Below, piece after piece: positions 40,604 through 54,965 of a stretch of DNA of 64,000 bases. The translations under genes were made by a program, and so were the position numbers. The stretch spans positions 288,001 to 352,000 of the forward strand of contig CBDUPA010000002.1 of NCBI GenBank assembly GCA_965368975.1, given 5' to 3'. The notes under the pieces were generated by a model. That model was not told the DNA's origin. It searched no databases and saw nothing but the letters and a program-made list of their open reading frames with translations. The stretch's first letter is position 1. Each line of letters starts with the position of its first letter. The stretch comes from an uncultured bacterium (GTDB taxonomy: Bacteria > Acidobacteriota > Thermoanaerobaculia > Multivoradales > JAHZIX01).

Positions 40604-42823
40604 ATGAATACTCGACTTTCTCTCACCCTCTCCCTCACCCTCCTCACGCTCAGCTCGGCGCCCGCGACGGCCGAAGGTACAGCCGCAACTACCTGGACAC
40701 CGCTCTCGATCCAGCTGGAGGCCGAACTCGATCCCGCGGCAGGTTCCCTGCAGGCCAAAGCCCACCTCGACTTCCGGGCCGGCAGCGAGGCCCTTCGCCT
40801 GGCCCTGCATCCCGCGCTGACCCTCGACTCGGTGGTAGAGCTTGGCACTTCGCGCCAGCTCGAGGTCCTGCAGGTCGAGGCTGGCAACCTGGAAGAAGCT
40901 CCGCTCCAGCCGGCAGTCTACGAGCTGGTCGAGCTGACGGAGCTCCGCGGCGGCGTTCTGCTCGAGGTCCGCTACCACGGCACCCTGCGCCAAGACATCA
41001 CAGCCGGTGAGCAGCCCGGGCAGATTCACAACTTCCAGATGCAGGCCCACATCGGCACCGAAGGCGTCTACCTCGAGGCCGACGCCTACTGGCATCCGCG
41101 CCTGCCTCCCGCCGCCGACAACACCCCGGCTCCGTTGGTCACGCACGAACTGGTCGTCGAGGCACCGTCCGACCTCGTGCTGGTGGCCAGCGGCGAACGC
41201 TCAGAGACGAACTCCACCCATTGGACCACCCCTCTGCCCCTCCCCGGCCTGACCCTGGTCGGCGGCCAGCACCGCGTGTGGCAGCGGCAGGTTGGCGATG
41301 TGCTCGTGCGGGCCCATCTGAGCGAGGACTCCGCGGCTTTCGCCGAACCCTTGCTCCAGGCTACCGAGCACTACCTCGGCCTCTTCCAGCCCCGCCTCGG
41401 CGCCTACCCCTACCGTGAGTTCACCATCGTCGAGAACTTCTTCAGCTCCGGCTTCGCCTTCCCCGGCTTCACGCTACTGGCCAAGGAAGTGATCCGCATG
41501 GGCGAGAGCAGCCTGCGCCCCGGCTACCTCGACCACGAGCTGCTGCACAGCTGGTGGGGCAACGGCGTCTACGTCTCCCCCGAAGACGGCAACTGGTGCG
41601 AAGCGCTCGCGACCTTCTGCGGCAACTACATGCGTCCCGTGCTGGAGGGCCACGATGCGGACGGCCGCAAGTTCCGCCGTGACGTGACCGAAAGCGTCAG
41701 CCGACTCGACGACGACCGCCTGCATCCGCTAGGTGACTTTCAGCTCGAAGGTGCCCCCGAAGAGGTGAGTCGCTTCCAGGGTTACCAGGGGGGCGCCATG
41801 GTGTTCCACGAGCTACAGCGCCAGCTGGGCCAGGAGGCCATGTGGAACGGCCTGCGTCGCTTCTACACCGAGCACAAGGGCCAACACGCTGGCTGGGCGG
41901 AACTACAAGCCGCCTTCGAAGCCGAAAGTGGTCGCGATCTGGACGCTTTCTTCCACTACTGGCTGCGAGGCGACCAGGTACCCGAGATCGCGGTCACTGC
42001 AGCCCGGACGGTGGAGACGGGCATCGAGCTGGAAGTCCACGCCGACTTCGGCAGCTCGGACAGCGAGATGACCTCCCTGGGCTCCACCCTACCGCTGAAG
42101 CTCAAAGCCGCCGACGGCATCACCATCGCCGAGCGCGACATCGCGGTCCAGCAGGGTACCCACACCGTTCGATGGAACCTGCCCGCCGAGGTGACGACCC
42201 AGCCGCTGACGGTCGAAGTCGACCCCGACTTCCTCACCCTTCGCCGCCTGCCACCGCAGCTCCTCATGCCCACCCTCTCCGCCGTCGGCCTGCCGCAGGG
42301 CTTGACGCTGGTGCAGTCGAGCGAAGAGTCCGAAGCCGCGAAGGCAGCCTATGCCCCCGTCGTCGAGGCGTTCGAGCGTCGGTACACGCGATCCCCGGAC
42401 GACCTGCGTCAAGTTGATGCCGCGAACCTGCAGAAGAGTCTGGGCGAAGGCGATTATCTGATCCTCGGCCGAGCCACGCAGCAGCCAGCCGTGCAAGCCG
42501 TGCTCGAGAACTCACCGGTCAAGGTCACAGCCGGCGGCTTCCAGCTCGACGGCACTAGCTACACCGGCCCGGCGGATGCTCTGCTGGCCTGCCTGCGCAA
42601 TCCGAACGATCCGGAGGGCGTCGTGTGCCTCTACAGCGGCAACCGTCCCGAAGCGTTGGAGCGGGCCCACCTGCTGCCGTTCTACGGCGGTAATAGCTTG
42701 ATCGTGTTCCAGAGCGGCAGCCCCGTCGAGCGTCGGGACTTCGAAGGGGTAGAGCGGGTGGCAACTTTGCGTTCTTGTAGGAGCTATGATCCAGCCTCTT
42801 TGGATTCTCCGGATCAAAACTAG
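40604..42823 (+). CDS. Secreted M1-family (gluzincin) aminopeptidase
   Basis: HELLHSWWGN plus NWCEAL (HExxH..E); signal peptide. Confidence 0.88.
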   Translation: MNTRLSLTLSLTLLTLSSAPATAEGTAATTWTPLSIQLEAELDPAAGSLQAKAHLDFRAGSEALRLALHPALTLDSVVELGTSRQLEVLQVEAGNLEEAPLQPAVYELVELTELRGGVLLEVRYHGTLRQDITAGEQPGQIHNFQMQAHIGTEGVYLEADAYWHPRLPPAADNTPAPLVTHELVVEAPSDLVLVASGERSETNSTHWTTPLPLPGLTLVGGQHRVWQRQVGDVLVRAHLSEDSAAFAEPLLQATEHYLGLFQPRLGAYPYREFTIVENFFSSGFAFPGFTLLAKEVIRMGESSLRPGYLDHELLHSWWGNGVYVSPEDGNWCEALATFCGNYMRPVLEGHDADGRKFRRDVTESVSRLDDDRLHPLGDFQLEGAPEEVSRFQGYQGGAMVFHELQRQLGQEAMWNGLRRFYTEHKGQHAGWAELQAAFEAESGRDLDAFFHYWLRGDQVPEIAVTAARTVETGIELEVHADFGSSDSEMTSLGSTLPLKLKAADGITIAERDIAVQQGTHTVRWNLPAEVTTQPLTVEVDPDFLTLRRLPPQLLMPTLSAVGLPQGLTLVQSSEESEAAKAAYAPVVEAFERRYTRSPDDLRQVDAANLQKSLGEGDYLILGRATQQPAVQAVLENSPVKVTAGGFQLDGTSYTGPADALLACLRNPNDPEGVVCLYSGNRPEALERAHLLPFYGGNSLIVFQSGSPVERRDFEGVERVATLRSCRSYDPASLDSPDQN

Positions 42824-43023
42824 GGTCTAAGGCCAAGAGCAGTTCTCTGAGGTATGGACTCGACCTACTAAGCTCAACCCTTGACACGCATTAAAGCCGG
42901 TGCGTGCCTTAGGGAGCAAACATGCGCCAGCACACATCAAGTAAAGACACTATACTCTTGCAGGCTGCGCCAGTTCACCGAGCGATCAGCCAGCACCCAA
43001 CTCAGTAAGAGACTGGAGGCCCT

Positions 43024-44349
43024 GTGATCTTGATGCCAGATCCATCTCTATTGACTACGAGTGATAGTCGAAGTTTCATCGATGCCCTACCAGACTGGTT
43101 TGGTTGGGCCCTCTTGGGGATCTTTGCTACCTGTGTCTTCATTTTCGGCTACGCATACCGAAGCGTTCGGACCGGGCAAGAAGGGTCCTCAGAGCCACCA
43201 AGAGTAGTCGTCATCCCTCGCGATCATTACGACTTATCCAGGCTCGCACTTTCTGCCTTATTGTTAGCAGTCAGCGCTGTGGCAACCATCGTTCTTCCTT
43301 TTACCTTCTACGACTCCCAGACTAAACGGGATCAGGAAGCTCTCCGAATCTCTAAGCTAGAACTCGCCCTTCCACTTCTTGCCGAGCAAGACCCCAGCGC
43401 AGTGAGGACTGGCCTACTGACTCTTGATCGTTTGGGAGATACGCAAAGGGCCCTCGAATTTGCAAGAAGCTCTAACAACCGTGGGGTAATATCCGGCCTT
43501 GTTCAAATCATCTCCGACCAGAATCGACAGCCATCTCTCAGGGACTTCAAGTGCGACCGAGCCTTAAACCCAAGCACCGAAGCCCGAATACTGGAGACAA
43601 TTAGAAGAGGTATGCAGACCAGGTGGGCCTCTGCAATTGCAGAAATCACCTACCGAAATTACCAGAATATCCCCGCACTGAACAATACTACCTCAACAGG
43701 CCTTTTGTTAAGCCAGGAGCTTACGAACAAGGCGTCTTCCACAACTTCGAACCAACCTATGCTTCTTTTTGATCCTGAGTTAAGAACCCGAAAGGACTTG
43801 TGCCCCGAGGAAGAGAAACAGGAAGAGGAGGAAGAGAAACAGGAAGAGAACGAGGAAGAGAACGAGGAAGAGAACGAGGAAGAGAACGAGGAAGAGAACG
43901 AGGAAGAGAGCAAGCCTAGTCTGGAGTTCATCACTCTTTCTGGCATCTCAGGCAGCGTTGAGTTCTGCTGTGAATGTCAAGCACCAGTCCATTTTGGCAA
44001 CTCTGAAGTGGACGAGCAACAATGGAAAATTGTACGACCAGGGGTAAACCTAGGAGATCATGTGATCGGAATCTCCAGAAACAGAAGTGCGCCCGTGCTC
44101 CGCGAGGACGGAGACGCAGAGTGCTTGCTCACCGCGATTCCTGGCCGAATAATCAGAGTAAATGACCAAATCGTGGAAGTGAAGTTCCTCAAGCAGACCT
44201 TCCCGCCGGATTTCATATTCTCAGAGTATGGATACTTCCTAGGGTATCGGACAATAGAACGGGCTCCGCCTGGAAGCGAGTTAGTAAGACTTACAGCTAT
44301 CTACACATCCGTTACACGACAGGATGTGACTATCAAAGAAGGATGGTGA
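43024..44349 (+). CDS. Hypothetical lower-GC membrane protein with acidic repeat
   Basis: Two N-terminal TM segments; GGAGG RBS; EEEN repeats. Confidence 0.7.
   Translation: MILMPDPSLLTTSDSRSFIDALPDWFGWALLGIFATCVFIFGYAYRSVRTGQEGSSEPPRVVVIPRDHYDLSRLALSALLLAVSAVATIVLPFTFYDSQTKRDQEALRISKLELALPLLAEQDPSAVRTGLLTLDRLGDTQRALEFARSSNNRGVISGLVQIISDQNRQPSLRDFKCDRALNPSTEARILETIRRGMQTRWASAIAEITYRNYQNIPALNNTTSTGLLLSQELTNKASSTTSNQPMLLFDPELRTRKDLCPEEEKQEEEEEKQEENEEENEEENEEENEEENEEESKPSLEFITLSGISGSVEFCCECQAPVHFGNSEVDEQQWKIVRPGVNLGDHVIGISRNRSAPVLREDGDAECLLTAIPGRIIRVNDQIVEVKFLKQTFPPDFIFSEYGYFLGYRTIERAPPGSELVRLTAIYTSVTRQDVTIKEGW
43807..43910 (+). repeat. 12-bp tandem repeat GAGGAAGAGAAC encoding EEEN/EEKQ
   Basis: Seen directly. 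Confidence 0.95.
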
Positions 44350-44352
44350 AGG

Positions 44353-44631
44353 ATGAGAGGCCTAATAACCGAAAACAGGATAATCCCAACATGCGTCAAT
44401 GCCACAGATGTGCTAGTTTTTGCTGGGGTCCTGATTTTCATCGTCCTAGGGCTGTTTCCCAGCCTAATCGAAGAGGATGTACCCGAGACTCAGCCACCAG
44501 TAGACTTCATGCTTCCGAGCTGCCTTGCCCAACAGGGCTATGCGCTTCGACATCTTGGACAAGAGCCGCAGATTGGCGGAACTATCAATCCAGCTACCTT
44601 GAGGTGCTCAGGTGCTCCAACCAACTGCTAG
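44353..44631 (+). CDS. Small exported peptide A (C-terminus GTINPATLRCSGAPTNC)
   Basis: Hydrophobic N-terminal segment. The C-terminus is conserved with 49750-50001 at the protein level, with many synonymous differences. Confidence 0.8.
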   Translation: MRGLITENRIIPTCVNATDVLVFAGVLIFIVLGLFPSLIEEDVPETQPPVDFMLPSCLAQQGYALRHLGQEPQIGGTINPATLRCSGAPTNC

Positions 44632-45886
44632 GATAAGAAGGCTAATCCCAAGGAGAAGCATCATTGTTCAAGTGACTCTCGTTTTCGGCCTTGGTGCCTG
44701 CGGCTGGGAAGGAGAGCGAGTAGAGTTGACCCCTCCACCTAGATGGGTTTCCAGCTTACACATAAATTCGACCGAGAGTTCTTTCCTGATTATTGTAGAT
44801 CCTACAGCTGAAGTAGAGGACGGCCTACTCTTCTATGACCACAGAGGCTCAAGTCTCCGCATGCAGCACCCGGCCAATGGAATGATGGTGGTTGCTATGC
44901 AAGCTTTCGGTTCTGGCGATATCTCAAGAGTTCCCGGCAGCGGGTACATCGCACAAACTGACGGACCCAAGTTCCTGCATTTTGATGACCAACTCAAGCT
45001 CAGGAGCGAAGTCTTCGATAAGACAACGCTCCTCATCAATGGAGCAGCTCAATGCAACTCAAGCATTGAGACGGAATCTAATTTCAAATTTGCAACAATC
45101 GGCATGCCTATAGCATGGCATTTTTCTGCTGAACGGTTGTTCCTCTTGGGAGATATCCAGGTGTTTGAAGGGCCTCCAGAAGACTCCGAGGGCTCATGGA
45201 TGTTTGGCCTACTAGAGATTGACAGATCTGCATCAAGGCCGTCATTCAATATCATCGGTAGCCTGCATTCGGTCGACGAATCCACCAGAGATCAGCATTT
45301 GGATCAATCCACCAGAGATCGGCATTTGTATGCTCGCTTTCCGGTCCTCACAGTTGTCAAGAATTATCTTTATTTCCTGCATTTAGAGGAGAACCCGACA
45401 ATCCTCAGATACAGAATCGGTAGCTGCGCAGAACCCAGGGTCATCCTAGCGCTCAGTGAAAGGCCATTCCAACTAACAGCTCCGAATGTACCTCGGAGGA
45501 TTTCTGGGCCAGATGTTGGCAGCGTTTTCAAAGCTCAGGAGATGTCGGATATGCCGATAGGCCTATTCAACTGGGAAGACCGGTTGGTCTTGGCATCACG
45601 GCGCAGAGCAGTCCCGGGTGCAACTACTGATTGGGAGTTACATCTGCTTAAGGGAGCACGCTCAAGCTCTCTTGAGCTGGATCGTTCACTTAAACTCACC
45701 CAAGTGAGTGCCTCCCACCTGATGATTGCTCCTGGAGACCCTGAGTGGGTATTTCTGGAGCAAGGCACTGTCGAGAGTCTGGGATTTCAGAATCAGGAAT
45801 CCATCTTAATACTTCCGAATTCAAGAATACAGCACTGCTTCCACAAGAGCGGAGACGGAGTCACTGCTGAGTGCCCGCCGGTCTAA
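44612..45886 (+). CDS. Exported beta-rich (propeller-like) protein A, unknown function; start uncertain
   Basis: Lipobox-like LGAC; motifs collinear with 50105-51235. Confidence 0.7.
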   Translation: MLQPTARIRRLIPRRSIIVQVTLVFGLGACGWEGERVELTPPPRWVSSLHINSTESSFLIIVDPTAEVEDGLLFYDHRGSSLRMQHPANGMMVVAMQAFGSGDISRVPGSGYIAQTDGPKFLHFDDQLKLRSEVFDKTTLLINGAAQCNSSIETESNFKFATIGMPIAWHFSAERLFLLGDIQVFEGPPEDSEGSWMFGLLEIDRSASRPSFNIIGSLHSVDESTRDQHLDQSTRDRHLYARFPVLTVVKNYLYFLHLEENPTILRYRIGSCAEPRVILALSERPFQLTAPNVPRRISGPDVGSVFKAQEMSDMPIGLFNWEDRLVLASRRRAVPGATTDWELHLLKGARSSSLELDRSLKLTQVSASHLMIAPGDPEWVFLEQGTVESLGFQNQESILILPNSRIQHCFHKSGDGVTAECPPV

Positions 45887-45894
45887 GAGGCAGC

Positions 45895-47304
45895 CTAGGT
45901 CCACCCGATCCACACCGCTACCACCAACGCGACGCACGCCACGATCCACGCCTTGACCAGGAACGGCAGCACAAAGCGCACCCAGCGGTCATAAGGAATA
46001 CGGGCGATCGACAAGATACCGACGAGCACCGCGTTGGTCGGCACCAGGATGTTGGTGAGACCGTCGCCGAACTGGTAGGCCAGCACCGACACCTGACGCG
46101 ACACGCCGACGAGATCCCCGATCGGTGCCATCAGCGGCACGGTCACGTACGCTTGACCGCTGCCGGAGGGGATGAAGAAGTTACACAGGCTTTGGAACAC
46201 CAGCATACCGACGGCGGCAAGCTCCGGACCCAGAGTCTCCAAGGTCGACGCAATGCTGTGGATGATCGTATCGACGACTTGACCCTCGTCCAGCACCAAC
46301 TCGATCGTGCGCGCAAAACCGATCAGGAGCGCGGTCGTCGTAAGTTCGGCGGCGCCGTGGCAGAAGTTCTTGGCGGTGCCATCGAAGCCGAGACGTCCGG
46401 CGAGGCCCAGGACGATCGAGAGGCCGAGGAAGAGAGCTCCCATCTCGACCAGGTACCAGCCCTGGCTGACCAGACCCCAGATCAACAAACCGACGGCGGC
46501 AACTGTGACGAACAGGGACAGCTTGTGCCGCCCGGTCAGGCTCGGGTGCTCGTTGGCGTCGACGGTGGCGGGTGGCTCGATGCCGGCGACCAGGGACTTC
46601 GACGGATCCGCCTTGACCTTGCTGGCATAGCTCCACACATGGTGAATGCCGATGGCCAGGAAGACGACGACCCAAGCGAGGCGGTATGGCATGCCGGAGC
46701 CTTGAGGCAGGCCAGCAATGTCCTGCGCGATGAAGATGGTGAAGGGGTTGATGATCGCCAGGCCGTAGCCAATGCCGTAGCCGATGCACATCACGCCAAC
46801 GGCGGTCACAGCGTCGAAGCCCAGGGCAACGCACAGCGCAACGAGCATGAGGACGAAGGGTATGTACTCCTCCGCCATGCCAATCGTGCTAGAGCCAACG
46901 GCGAAGAGCAGGATGCCGCCGGTGATCAACCAGAAGGGTCGATGACCGAGCCGGCGCAGCAGAGCGCCGATGGCGGCATCGGCAGCGCCGGTGGCGCGGA
47001 AGACACCGAACGCTCCGCCGACGATGAAGACGAAGAAGATGATGTTCTGCGCCGCCGCAAAGCCGGCCGGGATGGCGGTGAGCGGCGTCAGGGGGCTGAG
47101 CGTCGTGGGCTCTGCGGCGCGTTCGTAACTGCCCGCGACGACACGGTCGTGACCGTCGACCTCCTGGCGCTCGTACTGCCCCTGCGGCAGCAGGTAGGTG
47201 AGTACCAGCGCCAGCACGATCATGCCAAAGAGCAGCACTAGCGTATGGGGCACGCGGAAGCCTGAACTGGAAGGGGCGGAACCGCTCTTGGTAGTCTCAG
47301 CCAT
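45895..47304 (-). CDS. YfcC/DcuC-family transporter
   Basis: [33 protein letters not shown] and AYQFGDG motifs. Confidence 0.9.
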
Positions 47305-47475
47305 AGTCTTCTCCTAATATCTTCCTCGGTGTGGCGTACATCAAGCCGATGCGCGCCGAGTTAACCACATCTGACCCCGAGGCGACGAGAGCAGTCTTGA
47401 ACCGCTGTAAGACTCACGCTCCTCAACAGAACACTGGTGCTGGGTCGCATCGTCGTCTGACGCGCCATAGACACC

Positions 47476-49499
47476 ATTGGTAGATCCTTACACGTTTCTA
47501 AGCGGTCGCCCGCTCGGGTAGATGTCAAGACCCCCTTTCAAACCGTGCTTGCGGATTTCCCGCACACGGCTTACGGATGGCCTCTCGGGTCGCGGCATTA
47601 CGCAGCCTCCGGGTAGCGGATCGTGCCCATGAGCTTGTAGAGCCCGAGGTTCCAGAAGGACTCACTCGTCCAGCGGCGCGCCTCGCCCAGCTTCAGGTGC
47701 CGCCCTTTGCGCGTAAGGCGCAAGCGGCGCAGTCGTCGCCAGACGTAGGTGTCGACTTGAACGAATTGCTTGGCGGCGTTTCCCGTGCGGAAGTACTGAC
47801 TCCACCCTCGAAGCACGGGGTTGAGACTCGCGATGACATCGCGCAGATCCGCGTGGCATCGTGACCTCGGAGTCAGCTCTTTGATGCGCTGCCGTATACG
47901 CTGCATCGAGCGCTGCGACGGCCAACGGTGGAGAAAGTAGAGCCGACGCCCCGTCTTCTCCCACAATCGACCGCTCAAACGCTTGTGCAGGTGGCAGCCG
48001 AGGAAGTCGAACCCCTCCTTGCCGTCGTAGAGATTCACTCGCCTCGTCTTCTCCGGGTGTAGCTCCAGACCAAGACGTTCCAGGATCACGCGGATCCGCG
48101 CCTCGGCCTGATCGCACTGGGACTTCGTGCGACAGATCACGACGAAGTCGTCTGCGTACCGCACCAGCGTCCCCAAGGGAGCGCTGTGGCGCGTCCACAG
48201 CGTGTCCAGCACATGCAGGTAGATGTTCGACAGCAAGGGTGAAATCACACCACCCTGCGGTGTACCGACCCGCGTCGGCGACACCTTGCCGTCCTCCATC
48301 ACACCAGCTTCGAGCCACTGCCGCAGCAGCTTCAGCATCCGCCGATCCGAGACGCGCCGTGCCACCAGAAGCAACAGCTTCCGGTGGTCGATGCTCCCGA
48401 AGTAGTCCCGGATGTCGGCATCGAGCACGTGATGATGCCCCTTGGCGCCGAGCTTCCTCAGCGTCTCCAGCGCATCCGTCGCACTCCGCTTTGGCCGGAA
48501 ACCATACGAGACGGGCAAGAAATCCGCCTCGAAGATCGCCTCCAACACCAGCTTTGCCGCCATCTGGACCACACGGTCTCGTACCGTCGGGATACCCAGC
48601 GGCCGCTTCCTTCCATCTGCCTTCGGGATGTACCGGCGCAGCACCACCTCAGGCCGATACTTCTTGGCTCGCAGCGAGGAACCGAGCTCTTCCAGGAAGC
48701 GCTCGGTACCGTACTGCTCCACGTCGCCTAGCGTCGCGGCATCGACGCCCGCGGCTCCGCGGTTGGCTCGTACCCGCTTCCACGCCTCCCACAGGATGTC
48801 ATCCCTGTGGATGTGGTTGTACAGGGCGTGGAAACGCCTACCCGGCGACCGCTTGGCCGCCGCCCACAGTCGACGTTGGAGGTGGCGCACTTTCACGCTC
48901 GGCCTACGGCCGACGGGGTCGATAGGTCCGGTCTTGCCGGCCATTCCCTTGCACGTGCCTCCACCCTCGACATGACCAAACCAGGGACCCTTCCCTAAGG
49001 CGGCGTTCTTCTGCACCGCCTTCACCGGTACTACGATCCCCTCGGACTCCCGCTGCGCACGACCCGACTTCGCCTTCGGCCTATACGGGCACGCTGGCCG
49101 CGACAACGGCTGCACAGACGGGTCTCTCGTGTTCCGCGCGTCTCCTTGCACACGTGCTGCGCCCCATACCCCGCCGGCATCCGACGCAGGCTCCGGATCT
49201 GACCCCACGCCGGACATGGCCTTCGCCGTGACATGAGCGGCTCGGCTACCGAATTGTAAATCTGTCGAGGCTGCAGGCTTCACTTCATGTTGCGGCCCGT
49301 GTGCTTGCTCCCCGTCCAGCGGAAATTCTCCGCCTCCGGGCTTGTGACGCCCCGCTCGGGCAAAGGGGTCTCCCCCAAATACCTGGGGCCGGCTACTCGG
49401 CGCTCCGGCGCTTACCGAGGTGGGACTTTCACCCACTGGACACGCGCAGCGCACAGATCTCTCCCCGGAAACCAGAGTTCGATCTGTTTCACGACGCAC
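47476..49499 (-). mobile_element. Group II intron (full length)
   Basis: 5' end GTGCG at 49499. Domain V AAGCCGTGTGCGGGAAATCCGCAAGCACGGTTT at 47572-47540. Domain VI and 3' end ...CTACCAAT at 47476. Internal RT ORF present. Confidence 0.92.
47598..48944 (-). CDS. ltrA: Group II intron reverse transcriptase/maturase, no endonuclease domain
   Basis: RPLGIPTVRDR, SYGFRPKRS, GTPQGGVISPLLSNIYL, RYADD, FDFLG and maturase LNPVLRGW..YF motifs. The frame is open upstream to ATG 49502. Confidence 0.93.
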   Translation of the reverse strand: MAGKTGPIDPVGRRPSVKVRHLQRRLWAAAKRSPGRRFHALYNHIHRDDILWEAWKRVRANRGAAGVDAATLGDVEQYGTERFLEELGSSLRAKKYRPEVVLRRYIPKADGRKRPLGIPTVRDRVVQMAAKLVLEAIFEADFLPVSYGFRPKRSATDALETLRKLGAKGHHHVLDADIRDYFGSIDHRKLLLLVARRVSDRRMLKLLRQWLEAGVMEDGKVSPTRVGTPQGGVISPLLSNIYLHVLDTLWTRHSAPLGTLVRYADDFVVICRTKSQCDQAEARIRVILERLGLELHPEKTRRVNLYDGKEGFDFLGCHLHKRLSGRLWEKTGRRLYFLHRWPSQRSMQRIRQRIKELTPRSRCHADLRDVIASLNPVLRGWSQYFRTGNAAKQFVQVDTYVWRRLRRLRLTRKGRHLKLGEARRWTSESFWNLGLYKLMGTIRYPEAA

Positions 49500-49600
49500 C
49501 ATGGCCTCATTCTAGGTCCGACAACGCGTACTAGTATTGAGCCAGAAGATTCGCTAGCAAGAACATTCCCAGCGAGCCTCAGACTGATTGGGCCAATAGG

Positions 49601-49630
49601 TTGACAAGCAAAGTTGGCCGGAGCTACACT
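49601..49630 (+). promoter_or_regulatory. Possible sigma70 promoter for peptide B cassette
   Basis: TTGACA-18 nt-TACACT. Confidence 0.45.
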
Positions 49631-49749
49631 CTCATTCTTCTTTTCTCCTCCTTATTTCGGTCTAACTTCAATCTCAGAATCTGTGTTCTCCATGCAACAA
49701 AGACCGGAGAATCGCGTTTCTGTTATAGTATGAGTACCCGAAGGAGCCA

Positions 49750-50001
49750 TTGATGAAATTGCACAAGAGACTTTGGCGGGTTTCGGCTATTTGTGTTGCT
49801 CTGCTCGCATTTTCGGCAGGCGCAGTAGGCCAAGGACACTGTCCATCGCAAACAGCCTCTTCTGCTGCCAGGGACTTTGGCAGTACAAGCTGCACGGACA
49901 AGAGCAATCACCGGGGGGACTTGCACGAATCTCCTGACATCCTATCCGGAACGATCAATCCCATCTCCCTGACGTGCAGTGGCGCACCAACAAACTGCTG
50001 A
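49750..50001 (+). CDS. Small secreted peptide B (C-terminus GTINPISLTCSGAPTNC)
   Basis: AAGGAG RBS, Sec-type signal peptide, conserved C-terminal motif. Confidence 0.85.
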   Translation: MMKLHKRLWRVSAICVALLAFSAGAVGQGHCPSQTASSAARDFGSTSCTDKSNHRGDLHESPDILSGTINPISLTCSGAPTNC

Positions 50002-50104
50002 GTCCTTCCCCCCGACTGAGAACCAGGTAAAACGATCAATGAACATGCCAGAATCTGCTCTCTTGGCAGCCTACTCCTCTTGGGCTGACCGGTACTACAC
50101 TTTC

Positions 50105-51235
50105 ATGCGGTGGCTACTTGCCTTAGCGGTTCTGTTGTCCGCATTGGGCAACCCAGCATTCGCTCAGACAAGCGAGAGCTGCACGCAGTTTCGGTTGAGT
50201 GCTGCACCGGATTGGACAGCGTCCATCGCTTGGTCTCCAAACCATCGCGCTTTGATCTTCGCGGACCCGACGTCGGCGACGCTTCACGCATTCCGACCTT
50301 CGTATCTCTCCAAGAGCATGATTCTGGATCCCGGCCTGACACAGACACTCAACGAGAACCAGCCAGCTAGACGCCCGTCGACGTTGCATCGAATCAGTTC
50401 TGGATTCCTACTGGAGGATGCGGCAGATGGCTCTATCGTGCGCCTCTCTTCAAGCTGGGAAAGTGTGGATCGAGTTCGCGTTGCAGGGATGTACCATCGT
50501 ACCCAAGGCACGTTGGAAGCTCTCCACAACTGGAGGCCGTCACCCGACGGCTCGGAGATCTTCGCCTATGGCGACGTCAAGGCCCAGGACTCTTCAAAGT
50601 GGACAGCTGCGTTGGTACGTATCGACCTGAGCGAGGAGACCTTCGAGGTGATCCAAGAACAGGAGTTCTCTTCGCCACTTCGCTCTCTTTACCTAGCCGG
50701 CCTACCCTACATCGAAGCAAGGGGAACACCTGCAACCTTCGTTGGGCAGAACACCAATGGTGAGATCAGGTTGGTACGACATGCTGCTGGGACGAGGACT
50801 GTCCAGGAACCACCTGGGCAGCTCCGAAGGTTCCTAAACTTCCGGGATTTTGTGCACTACAACGGTCTGGCAAACTTCGTCGACTTCTTTGATTCCCTCG
50901 GAAGTCGCGAGTACCTAGCAGGCTTTCTCGAGGTAGATGGTGTAAGCCACCTGCTACTGAGAGCCCGCACCGACGCTGGTCGATATGTTTGGGCTGTCGC
51001 AGACGAACAAGATGGCGACAGACAGCAGATTAGCTTCGTGCAGCTCCCCGTCCAGTCACCACAGGTACTTATCACCTCGACAGAGGATTCAGTCATCCTA
51101 GTCGAGGCCACCGTCACAGATGTTGGTCGGAAAGAATTTGGCTCGGTATGGGAGATTCCAAACAATCTCCTGAATTCAGCTGTGGCCCTGGCGCAAGAGC
51201 ACCCTGGGAGGGTCCGGCTAGTCTGCCAGAACTGA
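50105..51235 (+). CDS. Secreted beta-rich (propeller-like) protein B, unknown function
   Basis: Signal peptide MRWLLALAVLLSALGNPAFA; WSPN and PSPDG blade-like motifs; paralogous to 44612-45886. Confidence 0.75.
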   Translation: MRWLLALAVLLSALGNPAFAQTSESCTQFRLSAAPDWTASIAWSPNHRALIFADPTSATLHAFRPSYLSKSMILDPGLTQTLNENQPARRPSTLHRISSGFLLEDAADGSIVRLSSSWESVDRVRVAGMYHRTQGTLEALHNWRPSPDGSEIFAYGDVKAQDSSKWTAALVRIDLSEETFEVIQEQEFSSPLRSLYLAGLPYIEARGTPATFVGQNTNGEIRLVRHAAGTRTVQEPPGQLRRFLNFRDFVHYNGLANFVDFFDSLGSREYLAGFLEVDGVSHLLLRARTDAGRYVWAVADEQDGDRQQISFVQLPVQSPQVLITSTEDSVILVEATVTDVGRKEFGSVWEIPNNLLNSAVALAQEHPGRVRLVCQN

Positions 51236-51256
51236 TCGACCCGAGAACGAGGCACA

Positions 51257-51294
51257 AAACGACCCTTAGCTCCTTGGGAGCTTGAGGGTCGTTT
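51257..51294 (+). terminator. Hairpin downstream of cassette B
   Basis: AAACGACCCTTAGCTCC-ttg-GGAGCTTGAGGGTCGTTT. Confidence 0.6.
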
Positions 51295-51464
51295 CCCGTT
51301 TTGGGGTCCCAACCGTCTCGGCTCACTTCAAGAACTTCGGCCACAACCCCTGGTGTAGGATGCCCGCAATGAGAGGCATCGATCCCGGCCCTCTCGAGCG
51401 GCAACCGAACTCTCGACCTCTCCGCTCCAACGCCCACCGACAACCAGACGCAAGGGAGGCACGC

Positions 51465-54400
51465 ATGACGCGTAGCACGTGGACCCTCGGACTCGTTCTC
51501 ATCCTGCTCGCCGCCCTCACGGCGGTACCGGCCGTCGCCTCGAAGACGCAACCGGCACCCGGCACCTCCGCCGGCCTCGACGCCGATCTGCTCGCCGGCA
51601 TGACGGCACGCGCCATTGGCCCGGCGGCGATGAGCGGTCGTATCGGCTCGATCGACGCGCTGGCGAATGACCCGAACGTGATCTACGTGGGCGCCGCCAC
51701 CGGCGGCTTGTGGCGCACGCGCAACGGCGGCGTCACCTGGGAGCCGATCTTCGACGATCAGCCGGTAGCAGCGATCGGAGCAGTGACGCTGGAGCAGGCG
51801 AATCCGGACGTGGTGTGGGTGGGCACCGGCGAGGGCAACACGCGCAACAGCGTGTCCGTGGGCAACGGCGTCTACAAGTCGCTCGACGGCGGCGACACCT
51901 GGACGCACCAAGGCCTCGACCAGACCGAGCGCATCCACCGCATCCGCCTGCATCCCGACAACGCGGACATCGCCTATGTGTGCGCCCTCGGCCAGCTGTG
52001 GGGCGAGAACGAGCAACGCGGCGTGTTCAAGACCACCAACGGCGGCACGACGTGGGCCAAGATCCTGTACGTCGACGAGCGCACCGGCTGCTCCGACCTG
52101 GAAGTGGACCCAGTGAACGGTGACAAGGTGATCGTGGGCATGTGGCAGCACCGCCGCTGGCCGTGGTCCTTCAAGTCAGGTGGCCCGGGCTCCGGGCTCT
52201 ACGTAACCCATGACGGCGGCGCGACCTGGACGCAGCGCACGCAGGACGACGGCCTACCGGAAGGGCACCTCGGCCGTATCGGCCTGGCGATTTCTCACTC
52301 GCAGCCGAACGTGGTCTACGCCATCGTCGAGGCCGAGAAGTCGGCTCTGCTGCGTTCCGACGACGGCGGCAAGACGTTCCGCGCCGTCAACACGAACAAC
52401 AACGTCATCTCGCGGCCCTTCTACTACGCCGACATCCGCGTCGACCCGAAGAACCCGAACCGTGTGTACAACCTGTGGTCGCTGCTTTCGGCCTCGGACG
52501 ATGGCGGCCGCACCTTCGACATCATCGGCTCCTGGAACACGATCCATCCCGACCACCACGAGCTGTGGATCCATCCGCACAACCCGCGCTTGCTGATCAA
52601 CGGCAACGACGGCGGCGTCACGATCTCGCAGGACCACGGCCGCACCTGGCGCTTCATCGGCAACCTGCCCTTGGCGCAGTTCTACCACGTGCGAGCTGAC
52701 AACCAGATCCCTTACAACGTCTACGGCGGCCTGCAGGACAACGGCTCCTGGGTCGGCCCCAACGAGGTGTGGGAGAACGGCGGCATCCGCAACCACCACT
52801 GGCAGGAAGTCAATTTCGGCGATGGCTTCGACACCGTGCCGGACCCGCAGATCCCCAACCAGGGCTACGCCATGGCGCAGACAGGCTACCTCGTGCGCTG
52901 GAACCTGGACACCGGCGAACAAAAAGAAATCCGACCAGCACCGCCGGCGGAGGACGAGAAGCTGCTGCGCTTCAATTGGAATGCCGGCATCGAATTCGAC
53001 CCGCACGACCCGACCGGCGCCACCGTCTACTACGGCAGCCAGTACATCCACAAGTCGACTGACCGCGGAGACACCTGGACGATCATCAGCCCGGACCTGA
53101 CCACCAACAACCCAGAGTGGCAGAAGCAGGCGGAGAGCGGCGGCCTGACGCTGGACGTGACCGGTGCCGAGAACTTCACCTCGATTCTGGCGATCGACCC
53201 CAGCCCGGTGCAGGAAGGCGTGATCTGGGCAGCCACCGACGACGGCCGCCTGCACGTGACGCAGGACGGCGGCGAGACCTGGACCAGCGTCGAGGGCAAC
53301 CTGCCGGGCGTACCGGCCAACACCTGGATCCCGCACGTCAACGCGTCGCCGCACGCCGCCGGCACCGCTTTCGTGGTGCTCGACGACCATCGGCGCTCCA
53401 ACTGGACCCCCTACGTGCTGCGCACCGACGACTTTGGCCAGACCTGGACGTCGCTGGTGAGCGACAACCTGTGGGGCTATGCCCTGGTGATCGAGCAGGA
53501 CCCGGTGGACCCGAACCTGCTGTTCCTGGGCACGGAGTTCGGCCTCTGGATCTCGACCGACGCCGGTAGCGGCTGGCTGCGCTTCGAGCACGGCGTGCCG
53601 ACGGTCAGCGTGATGGACCTGGCGATCCAGGAGACCGAGCACGACCTGGTGATCGGCACCCACGGTCGTGGCTTGTTCGTGCTGGACGACATCCGCCCCC
53701 TGCGCGGACTGGCCGCCGAGCACCAGGCGGGAGAGCTCCGCTTGTTCGAGATCCCCACCGCCTACCAGCACGAAGTCGCCCAGACTGGCTCCTCGCGCTT
53801 CCCGGGCAACATCGAGTTCCGCGGTGAGAACCCCCGCTACGGCGCGCTGCTCACCTTCTCCCTTCACGGCGACGACCTACCGCACCCGGACGAGGCGAAG
53901 GAACGCGAGCGCAAGGCCGCCGAACGCGCTGCCAAGCTGACCGAAGTCGAAGCCGGCGAGAGCACCGAACAAGAACCGGCACGGCGTCGCGGACGGCGCG
54001 CTGGCGCAGGTGGTCCAGGCCCAGGCGGCCCCCCGTGGGCGCGCGGCGACGACGGACCGCAGATCGACATCGAGGTCGCGGACGCCAGTGGTGAGGTCAT
54101 CCGCAGGTTCAAGGCACCCGCCCGCCAGGGTCTCAACCGGACCACCTGGAACCTGGCACGCGACGGCTTCCGTCGGCCAGCGGGGGACTTGCCCTTCTGG
54201 ATCACGGGAGCACCCACGGGACCGGCCGTACCGCCGGGCACCTACACGGTGACCGTGAAGTTCCGCGACCAGGAATCGAGCCAGACGGTCGAGGTGAAAG
54301 CCGATCCGCGCATCGATCCGCCCCAATCGCAAGCGACCTGGGAAGCCCACTACCAGGGCCTGCTCGACGTCGGGGCCCTACAGGAGGTCCTCACCGACGC

Positions 54401-54965
54401 TGTAGAGCGTATCGACGCGACCAAGACGAGCGTCGACAGCCTGCTGGCCCGCGCCGGTACCCTCAACAAGGAAGCTCTCGAGGCAGAAGAGGAGGAAGGC
54501 GGCGAGATAGAAGACGCTGCTTCCGAGACAGCTGACTCAGACACGGGCGACACCGAAGGCGAAGCGGGCAACACCAGCGGCACCGAGGTCGCGGCGACCG
54601 AAGAAGACGAGGCAGCCCGCGGTCCATACGGGGAACTGCTCAAGGCCGGCCGTGAGCTGAACGAGCAGCTCGACGGACTGCGCGAACGCCTGGTCGGTCC
54701 CGAAGAGAGCAAGGGCATCCAGGAGGACACCGACGCGCAAAGCTACCTGGGCGGTGTCCGCGGCTCGATGAGTTCCTCGTGGGATCCGCCGACGGCGGCA
54801 CAGCTGGCCTACCTGGAGCGCGTGCGCCAGCAACTGGCGGCAATCCTGGAAGACCTCAACCGCGTCCACGCCGAGGACGTCGCCGCCTTCCGGACCCAGG
54901 TGCGCGAGTCGCAACTCGACTGGCTGCCCGAGCAAGAACCTCTGACGCTGCCCGAGTCGGAGTAG
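51465..54965 (+). CDS. VPS10/BNR (Asp-box) repeat sortilin-like secreted protein
   Basis: RAIGPAAMSGRI, many S/TxDGGxTW boxes, GGLQDNGSW and GTHGRG motifs; signal peptide. Confidence 0.92.
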   Translation: MTRSTWTLGLVLILLAALTAVPAVASKTQPAPGTSAGLDADLLAGMTARAIGPAAMSGRIGSIDALANDPNVIYVGAATGGLWRTRNGGVTWEPIFDDQPVAAIGAVTLEQANPDVVWVGTGEGNTRNSVSVGNGVYKSLDGGDTWTHQGLDQTERIHRIRLHPDNADIAYVCALGQLWGENEQRGVFKTTNGGTTWAKILYVDERTGCSDLEVDPVNGDKVIVGMWQHRRWPWSFKSGGPGSGLYVTHDGGATWTQRTQDDGLPEGHLGRIGLAISHSQPNVVYAIVEAEKSALLRSDDGGKTFRAVNTNNNVISRPFYYADIRVDPKNPNRVYNLWSLLSASDDGGRTFDIIGSWNTIHPDHHELWIHPHNPRLLINGNDGGVTISQDHGRTWRFIGNLPLAQFYHVRADNQIPYNVYGGLQDNGSWVGPNEVWENGGIRNHHWQEVNFGDGFDTVPDPQIPNQGYAMAQTGYLVRWNLDTGEQKEIRPAPPAEDEKLLRFNWNAGIEFDPHDPTGATVYYGSQYIHKSTDRGDTWTIISPDLTTNNPEWQKQAESGGLTLDVTGAENFTSILAIDPSPVQEGVIWAATDDGRLHVTQDGGETWTSVEGNLPGVPANTWIPHVNASPHAAGTAFVVLDDHRRSNWTPYVLRTDDFGQTWTSLVSDNLWGYALVIEQDPVDPNLLFLGTEFGLWISTDAGSGWLRFEHGVPTVSVMDLAIQETEHDLVIGTHGRGLFVLDDIRPLRGLAAEHQAGELRLFEIPTAYQHEVAQTGSSRFPGNIEFRGENPRYGALLTFSLHGDDLPHPDEAKERERKAAERAAKLTEVEAGESTEQEPARRRGRRAGAGGPGPGGPPWARGDDGPQIDIEVADASGEVIRRFKAPARQGLNRTTWNLARDGFRRPAGDLPFWITGAPTGPAVPPGTYTVTVKFRDQESSQTVEVKADPRIDPPQSQATWEAHYQGLLDVGALQEVLTDAVERIDATKTSVDSLLARAGTLNKEALEAEEEEGGEIEDAASETADSDTGDTEGEAGNTSGTEVAATEEDEAARGPYGELLKAGRELNEQLDGLRERLVGPEESKGIQEDTDAQSYLGGVRGSMSSSWDPPTAAQLAYLERVRQQLAAILEDLNRVHAEDVAAFRTQVRESQLDWLPEQEPLTLPESE

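Follow-up and report, generated by a model that had tools for sequence, protein, structure and literature searches.

The 64,000-nucleotide (nt) stretch of Acidobacteriota DNA analysed here (the window; contig CBDUPA010000002.1, positions 288,001 to 352,000) carries two gene pairs, cassettes A and B, each of which encodes a small exported protein (pepA or pepB) that ends in a short cysteine-containing module and, directly behind it on the same strand, a larger exported protein (PA or PB) that is predicted to fold as a six-bladed propeller (Table 1). The peptide and the propeller constitute two unannotated families, which the searches placed in a single class of the Acidobacteriota, and the module is real and old; we regard both points as settled. 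On the grounds of natural fusions, close coupling of the genes and a fold model, we favour, at a probability of about 0.5, the reading that module and propeller dock, in cis or in trans, to make one extracytoplasmic binding unit.

Table 1. Features of the window and of the third cassette elsewhere in the genome (aa, amino acids; ORF, open reading frame; GC, guanine-cytosine fraction; RT, reverse transcriptase)
Feature	Position	Strand	Description
pepA	44353-44631	+	92-aa small protein; called ORF
PA	44612-45886	+	424-aa protein, predicted exported six-bladed propeller; canonical family member
pepB	49750-50001	+	small protein, 83 aa from TTG or 82 aa from ATG at 49753
PB	49979-51235	+	predicted exported six-bladed propeller, longest ORF 418 aa; divergent member
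Third cassette (locus L009)	contig C16:47568-49076	-	peptide and propeller; propeller at 47568-48782
Low-GC island of cassette A	42900-45900		GC 0.48-0.54 (over 43000-45999)
Low-GC island of cassette B	49500-51500		GC 0.51-0.58 (over 49500-51499)
Protein with M1 peptidase domain	40604-42823	+	739 aa; high-GC flank
Orphan 441-aa ORF	43024-44349	+	in the low-GC island with cassette A
DcuC-family transporter gene	45895-47304	-	Pfam E 6e-95; between the cassettes
Group II intron	47505-49499	-	complete-looking, high-GC; RT and maturase ORF; between the cassettes
Sortilin/Vps10 and BNR-repeat protein	51282-54965	+	1227 aa; high-GC flank

The two small proteins share a C-terminal module

ORF calls placed both short ORFs where the original prediction had put them, and a crude hydropathy test found a basic and hydrophobic segment at the N-terminus of each, in agreement with the export-type segments that had been proposed. 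In pepA this segment is followed by three cysteines, and pepB has a signal-peptide-like N-terminus with four cysteines beyond its hydrophobic segment. The front parts of the two proteins are unrelated. Their C-terminal ends, GGTINPATLRCSGAPTNC in pepA and SGTINPISLTCSGAPTNC in pepB, both followed by the stop codon, are identical at 14 of the final 17 residues and differ at three positions, and the C-terminal modules, GTINPATLRCSGAPTNC in pepA and GTINPISLTCSGAPTNC in pepB, lie directly before the stop. Alignment of the DNA confirmed the predicted 14 common tail residues and the use of different codons for 7 of them (Thr, Pro, Leu, Ser as TCA or AGT, Gly, Ala and Thr). The two proteins match each other by BLASTP at E 1e-9, and a profile of the peptide family matched pepA at E 2.1e-11 and pepB at E 7.4e-13 among 97,386 six-frame ORFs, each of the two being a row of that profile. 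The six-frame search of the source genome (7.13 Mb, 65.4% GC) that had been suggested for the full tail motif was run and returned the pepA and pepB sites only. One GTINP match on contig C46 was dismissed as chance because its frame is full of stops.

The original prediction had the tail end exactly at the stop codon, which is true of pepA and pepB and does not extend to the family: in an alignment of 27 peptides (A5), only these two end at the second cysteine of the pair, and the 25 others continue for 2-15 further residues. The three differing tail positions had been read as variable specificity positions, a reading drawn from two sequences only; in the 27-peptide alignment nothing is invariant except three cysteines, one lying 17-30 residues upstream and two forming a C-x6/7-C pair. 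The original prediction had missed the third of these, with which about half of the peptides have an odd number of cysteines. By a rough count, three cysteines follow the hydrophobic segment in 14 peptides, four in 11 and five in 2. The disulfide that the original prediction drew across the C-x6-C loop is, like the specificity positions, a guess.

The partners belong to one propeller family, and the genome holds three cassettes

PA starts at a GTG that overlaps pepA by 20 nt, with GAGG about 8 nt upstream of the start, and its N-terminus includes ...VFGLGAC, which looks like a putative lipobox. The PB ORF as called overlaps pepB by 23 nt; the public gene call (P0001) begins at Met21 and gives 398 aa, and a signal peptide is read from Met43 (position 50105). 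Pairwise comparison finds no significant likeness between PA and PB (BLASTP E 0.92), and PB has weak relatives in 12 of 40 related genomes. A propeller profile made from seven of these foreign relatives alone and run on the source genome's 35,249 ORFs of 100 aa or more found exactly three proteins, one on contig C16 (47568-48782; E 1.3e-47), PB (1.7e-38) and PA (2.6e-31), with the next match at 0.021. The homology and collinear motifs claimed for the two partners are therefore real at the level of profiles, and it is only in pairwise alignment that the likeness is lost.

The C16 propeller is part of a third cassette, in which a small signal-peptide ORF ending in ...GTWDDGNLDCVGGSHVDCSGVSIACPSGPLQQT lies directly upstream of it. 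When the peptide profile, composed of 27 peptides including the three of this genome, was searched against the genome's 97,386 ORFs of at least 40 aa, it likewise found exactly three peptides (next match E 0.17), each directly upstream of a propeller. These profile searches indicate that the genome holds three peptides and three propellers, always paired, where two cassettes had been claimed.

The propeller is modelled with six blades and the module as an add-on

The AlphaFold2 model of PB (28 homologues) is almost all beta, with a predicted local distance difference test score (pLDDT) of 86.8 and a predicted template modelling score (pTM) of 0.85, and together with its structural matches it upholds the earlier suggestion of a beta-propeller. 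The top VIA-align match of PB is the NHL domain of Brat (1q7f; Z 16.5, root-mean-square deviation 3.5, 249 residues aligned), which matches the naturally fused family member P0090 at Z 18.0; the six-bladed NHL domain 7nyq follows at Z 16.3 for PB and 17.6 for P0090, and close behind the NHL domains come, for PB, Yellow/royal-jelly proteins, Mala s 1 and other six-bladed proteins. Foldseek against the Protein Data Bank (PDB) returned generic propellers only for PB, at template modelling scores of at most 0.46, and the family profile weakly matches the NHL chains of TRIM3, TRIM71 and TRIM2 (E 7e-8 to 1e-5, with some 65 of the 368 positions aligned). By these models the propeller is six-bladed and distantly NHL-like, with helical inserts.

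In the AlphaFold2 model of P0090 (pLDDT 86.5), the module (residues ~21-45) has a pLDDT of 84-88 and two strand segments, and the 32-residue linker behind it (47-78) has a pLDDT below 50. Solved propellers align only to residues ~95-427, so that the module is an add-on element and no blade. A confident module of 20 residues on a disordered tether fits packing of the module against the propeller, as judged from this model.

The propellers carry one cysteine just past the signal peptide and one at the very end; among 28 propellers both lie in the main alignment columns in 17 and at nearby columns in 2, and neither is present in 6. This N- and C-terminal pair probably clamps the ring across its closure. 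About half of the systems carry an odd cysteine.

Of 153 family members, at least 95% share D, R, H, Q, two W, G and P, and 90-94% share two E. PA retains almost every position of the 95% class; PB lacks one E and, in the last blades, H, PG, W, K, G and Q. PB has thus lost most of the conserved polar and aromatic last-blade residues and PA has not, yet the tails of pepA and pepB are the most alike of 276 pairs.

The polar D, R, H, Q and the two E leave room for the alternative that the propeller, like many others with six blades, is an enzyme; its substrate would be the C-terminal tail of the peptide, which it would process, cyclise or trim and which would be the real product. The fold also resembles peptidyl-alpha-hydroxyglycine lyase (3fw0; Z 13.8-14.5), lactonases and strictosidine synthase, and the tail past the second cysteine varies over 0-15 residues, as if trimmed. 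We nevertheless consider an enzyme of this kind unlikely. The zinc site of the peptidyl-alpha-hydroxyglycine lyase type is built from three histidines and cannot be formed with the single one that the family conserves; PB is without most of the conserved polar set, yet its peptide is canonical; no maturase-type Pfam domain lies beside the cassettes; and a lasting fusion of substrate to enzyme, which would have to be assumed for at least 16 natural proteins, would be unusual.

Peptide and propeller stay together across genomes

Adjacency was assessed at the 30 best-scoring loci, two of which end at a contig edge, leaving 28 with upstream DNA. In 26 of these 28, a small same-strand ORF with a signal peptide lies directly upstream of the propeller and ends in G-T-x-[DN]...C-x6/7-C plus 0-15 residues. 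The distance from the peptide stop to the called propeller start is -25 to +52 nt for 24 of the 27 correctly picked peptides, and the remaining three have larger overlaps that come from over-long start calls. The crude hydropathy test found a basic and hydrophobic N-terminus in all 27 peptides and in 27 of the 28 propellers. For the converse test, 300 genomes of the order were searched with the peptide profile, which matched at 32 places in 29 of them, and 29 of the 32 adjoin or lie inside a propeller gene; 26 of those 29 are rows of the profile itself, and the new propeller-linked places are G216:C3:739969, G038:C41 and a 550-aa ORF of G036 in which module and propeller are fused. The three that lack a propeller score lowest of all and are partial matches (E 2.7e-5 to 9.5e-4). 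The co-occurrence of peptide and partner that had been put up for testing in other genomes was thus found in both directions.

These counts bear on whether the small ORFs are genes at all. High-GC genomes hold many spurious ORFs, and a search of sequencing runs turned up none of RNA for the stretch and one of DNA, with a 0.15 share of words; the small ORFs might be spurious too, or the propeller neighbourhood might be functionally meaningless; but an ORF with a signal peptide and the three invariant cysteines is kept in 26 of 28 loci beside propellers that are only 16-23% identical to PB, the tail is maintained at the protein level over seven synonymous codon changes, and the module is found in frame inside fused proteins. 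We regard either possibility as extremely improbable.

Natural fusions and TIR-linked variants

From the 150 best representatives of the propeller family, 21 proteins were fetched, mainly for a late match start in the protein. In 13 of the 21, a single chain comprises a signal peptide, the module, a linker of 50-90 residues and the propeller, and the consensus of the fused module is [KW]-G-T-x-D-x4-C-x-G-x-P-x2-3-C. Module and linker of the fused forms contain three cysteines, the third standing after the loop and not before it (P0065, P0074, P0077, P0090 and others). The other eight comprise seven proteins without the module, most with long N-terminal extensions, and P0132, in which a TIR_2 domain (E 3.4e-21) is followed by one hydrophobic segment and then the propeller. 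By this layout, a TIR protein that spans the membrane can have the propeller as its outer domain.

In three further proteins, of 861-885 aa, the module is internal, with a TPR-like domain ahead of it and the propeller behind. They belong to a five-gene operon kept in three genomes (G215, G290 and G030; loci L059, L060 and L061), with the order peptide, propeller, TIR_2 protein with one membrane-like segment, secreted cysteine-rich protein ending in ...HRHCP...CPGP, and the 861-885-aa protein itself, which has a lipobox-like start, a TPR-like N-terminal half, the internal module, a linker and the propeller. No TIR gene lies beside the cassettes of the window; the TIR linkage occurs only in these three genomes and in P0132.

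In every architecture seen, the module precedes a family propeller, and ahead of the module there is nothing, a stretch of ~30-60 variable residues, or a domain of 430 residues. The outcome is two new protein families and a rule that links them, namely that the module always lies ahead of the propeller, split or fused. With this rule, annotators have a means of recognising hundreds of small ORFs that may be passed over in gene calling.

The TIR variants would also suit a diffusible signal peptide used in kin or quorum recognition, with the propeller as its sensor: P0132 and the operon TIR protein with its one membrane segment in three genomes have an architecture that would suit a sensor, and the fold matches the NHL sensor domain of PknD (1rwi) at Z 13.6-14.6. 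Most propellers, however, are soluble and exported without any output domain, the ligand is covalently tethered in the fused forms, and the nearly identical tails in the window would bring about cross-talk instead of specificity. We rate this reading as quite unlikely.

A reading of the peptide as a secreted toxin or bacteriocin, and of the exported propeller as its cognate immunity protein, seems to us no more probable. In its favour, the module is multi-copy, a genome having up to five matches that are very divergent paralogues; in 24 of 27 loci the cassette is lower in GC than the flanking DNA, the mean difference being 5.8 points; and one propeller that lacks a peptide lies downstream of a 253-aa ORF and of an ORF with an Rhs-like C-terminal end (L008/L017; G038, contig C44), whose end ...DPLGL resembles that of an Rhs/YD-repeat core. 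An exported fusion of both parts in one chain, as in at least 16 natural proteins, would nevertheless neutralise itself; PADLOC has no match for peptide or propeller, no Pfam toxin or bacteriocin family matches any of the 27 peptides at E <=0.1, and neither an ATP-binding cassette (ABC) transporter for export nor a double-glycine leader was seen. Both the toxin/immunity pair and the free ligand/receptor pair offered in the original prediction are hard to square with the natural fusions of module and propeller.

Both families are unnamed and were found in one class only

Of 300 genomes from the order to which the source belongs, 117 have a match to the propeller profile at E <=1e-5, a tally that takes in the source genome and the unpublished genome G140; the matches fall in 33 of 89 genera and reach five per genome. 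In a sample of 301 genomes chosen evenly over the phylum, nine match at E <=1e-10, seven in the order of the source genome, itself counted, and the remaining two in a second order within its class, and at this threshold none outside the class. The 16 related public loci, found with a 12-row alignment, come from metagenome-assembled genomes labelled Holophagales, Thermoanaerobaculia or Acidobacteriota. Against 1.84 billion cluster representatives, the propeller profile yields 3407 matches at E <=0.001, 1161 at <=1e-10 and 744 at <=1e-30.

As the original prediction supposed, neither part falls in a named family. None of nine propellers reaches a Pfam model at E <=1, barring two chance-level matches, none of 28 matches an NCBIfam model, and none of the 27 peptides has a credible Pfam match. 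The few named relatives are recorded at source as 'hypothetical protein' only. A word-indexed protein search found nothing for PB except itself and, with the profile, six proteins that are 'hypothetical protein' or unnamed. The peptide profile matched no PDB sequence below E 0.29, and the matches to PB in the ESM Atlas resembled it at the level of the fold only (hypothetical, DUF5128/NHL), while none usable came up for pepB. Literature searches found nothing on DUF5128, on pairs of propellers and precursor peptides, on secreted NHL-repeat proteins of Acidobacteria, or on propellers with cysteine-rich small subunits.

The precursor of a ribosomally synthesised and post-translationally modified peptide (RiPP) with its maturase was tried as a candidate and rejected. 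Pfam found no family of cytoplasmic leader-dependent maturases (radical SAM, YcaO, lanthionine synthetase and similar) among the neighbours of the cassettes in the window and at 8 other loci, and such a precursor would lack a Sec signal and be modified before export, whereas all 27 peptides have the basic and hydrophobic N-terminus by the crude hydropathy test. The Pfam families that do occur as neighbours in the window and at these 8 loci are transporter, intron RT, leucine-rich repeat (LRR), pentapeptide, STAND, CarboxypepD_reg, TIR and TPR.

An extracytoplasmic docking unit as the favoured reading

In the docking reading, each cassette would provide two Sec-exported proteins that act as one unit outside the cytoplasm. 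The small protein would present a variable front followed by a hairpin-like module, G-T-x-[DN]-x3-5-C-x-G-x-P-x-x-C, with one further invariant cysteine, and the module would be supplied in trans by split genes, as in the window, or in cis, as in the natural fusions, so that the variable part or domain ahead of it would be held on the propeller. The unit may diversify by paralogy and horizontal transfer, and in one sub-lineage its genes stand in an operon with that of a membrane-spanning TIR protein. A cell-envelope binding or recognition device seems somewhat more likely to us than an enzyme because the paralogues are diversified, the cassettes lie in low-GC islands, and variants with TIR exist, both as a TIR-membrane-propeller protein and in the operon. 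The genes with their homology and adjacency, the fusions, the fold and the taxonomic range are what the analysis shows; the binding, the disulfides and the recognition role are proposals that we infer from them.

Several observations weigh against docking. Identity of the tails and identity of the propellers are weakly correlated (Spearman 0.15 over 276 pairs), which is not what tight pairwise co-evolution predicts, and the window is the extreme case, with tails 82% identical and propellers 17%. PB has lost many conserved residues and its tail is still canonical. The conserved polar D, R, H, Q and two E could form a catalytic or metal site instead of a docking surface. Two of the 28 loci (L014 and L017) have a propeller without an upstream peptide, and the peptide filter found none beside the two tandem propellers of L056. 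The adjacency sample, moreover, leans towards the closest relatives and under-samples the distant subfamilies.

A more specific and doubtful possibility is that the module is a portable docking tag by which variable head peptides or domains are fixed to a cognate propeller at the cell envelope, perhaps through an unpaired third cysteine, in a diversifying extracytoplasmic recognition system that is peculiar to one class of Acidobacteriota and is wired to a membrane-spanning TIR protein in some lineages. If that were true, it would amount to a new kind of envelope surveillance or of self/non-self recognition; and if the TIR link reflects a general function, the families would offer a view on how abundant soil bacteria sense their surroundings.

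Comparison with known systems

The NHL propellers (Brat, TRIM2/3/71 and the PknD sensor) have the six-bladed fold in common with the family, Brat being the best structural match, and the PknD sensor domain is extracytoplasmic, as are the family propellers. The family differs in having no Pfam NHL match (0 of 9 at E <=1) and no NCBIfam match (0 of 28), in its helical inserts and in its N- and C-terminal cysteine pair. To our knowledge, which rests on no exhaustive search, NHL proteins have no obligatory Cys-loop partner module.

In the quinoprotein amine dehydrogenases, a small cysteine-rich subunit binds a propeller, as do the light and heavy chains of methylamine dehydrogenase and the gamma and beta subunits of quinohemoprotein amine dehydrogenase. 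The likeness lies in a periplasmic pair of small cysteine-rich polypeptide and propeller from neighbouring genes. In contrast to them, the 27 peptides have three conserved cysteines only and no conserved Trp from which a tryptophan-derived quinone could be made, the propeller has six blades and not seven, no radical-SAM or other maturation gene lies near the cassettes, and neither peptides nor propellers match the Pfam families of these enzymes.

Eukaryotic proteins also combine a propeller with a disulfide module, such as the YWTD propeller and EGF module of the LDL receptor and the Sema propeller with PSI. There the disulfide module stands next to the propeller, presumably packed on it, in the one-chain layout of the fused members described above. 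They have no sequence relation to the module described here, which is much smaller (~20 residues), lies N-terminal to the propeller and is usually encoded by a separate gene.

Class II bacteriocins and microcins with their immunity genes resemble the cassettes in that a small exported cysteine-containing peptide directly precedes a cognate gene, and in being multi-copy, divergent and located in low-GC islands. The peptides here differ by a Sec-type signal in place of a double-glycine leader, and the partner differs in being an exported propeller of 350-450 aa that also exists in natural fusions.

Genomic setting of the cassettes

GC windows, Pfam and Rfam confirmed the predicted low-GC setting of both cassettes, with the transporter gene and the intron between them, against a genome average GC of 0.654. 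Rfam matches on the minus strand place intron domains D1-D4 at 49285-49438 and domain V/VI at 47512-47574, the 5' end of the intron reads GTGCG at 49499-49495 on the same strand, and its listed ORF (47598-49502) is over-long at the 5' end. The island of cassette B begins right after this 5' end. A promoter-like site, TTGACA-18-TACACT, lies at 49601-49630 on the plus strand, in a region in which promoter and terminator sites are no more numerous than in shuffled sequences.

The 441-aa ORF ahead of pepA has two hydrophobic segments close to its N-terminal end and a lengthy low-complexity run rich in Glu and Asn. Neither the fetched loci nor the rest of the genome hold a relative, no Pfam family scores above the cut-off, and the ORF is not counted in the module because no relative lies beside the other cassettes. 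The two high-GC flanking genes look like resident genes, and their products both have a start that by eye is signal-peptide-like. Recurrent neighbours in the 16 public loci are LRR proteins (6), pentapeptide-repeat proteins (4) and a STAND-type NTPase with LRR (one). Another low-GC stretch of this 65% GC genome lies on contig C46 (2000-10000; GC 0.46-0.53).

The C16 copy represents a second cassette type, whose peptides have 4-6 cysteines and which is followed in four loci, C16 among them by BLASTP likeness, by a protein with five CarboxypepD_reg repeats. Downstream of the C16 cassette come a 209-aa protein and then a long ORF, truncated at 582 aa by the end of the fetched stretch, that groups with the five-repeat CarboxypepD_reg proteins of L054 and L055 by BLASTP clustering; long ORFs lie likewise downstream in L056, L057 and L058. 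Directly upstream of the C16 cassette is a very long ORF with a GGHSL motif resembling that of a thiolation domain, which we take to be, probably, a non-ribosomal peptide synthetase.

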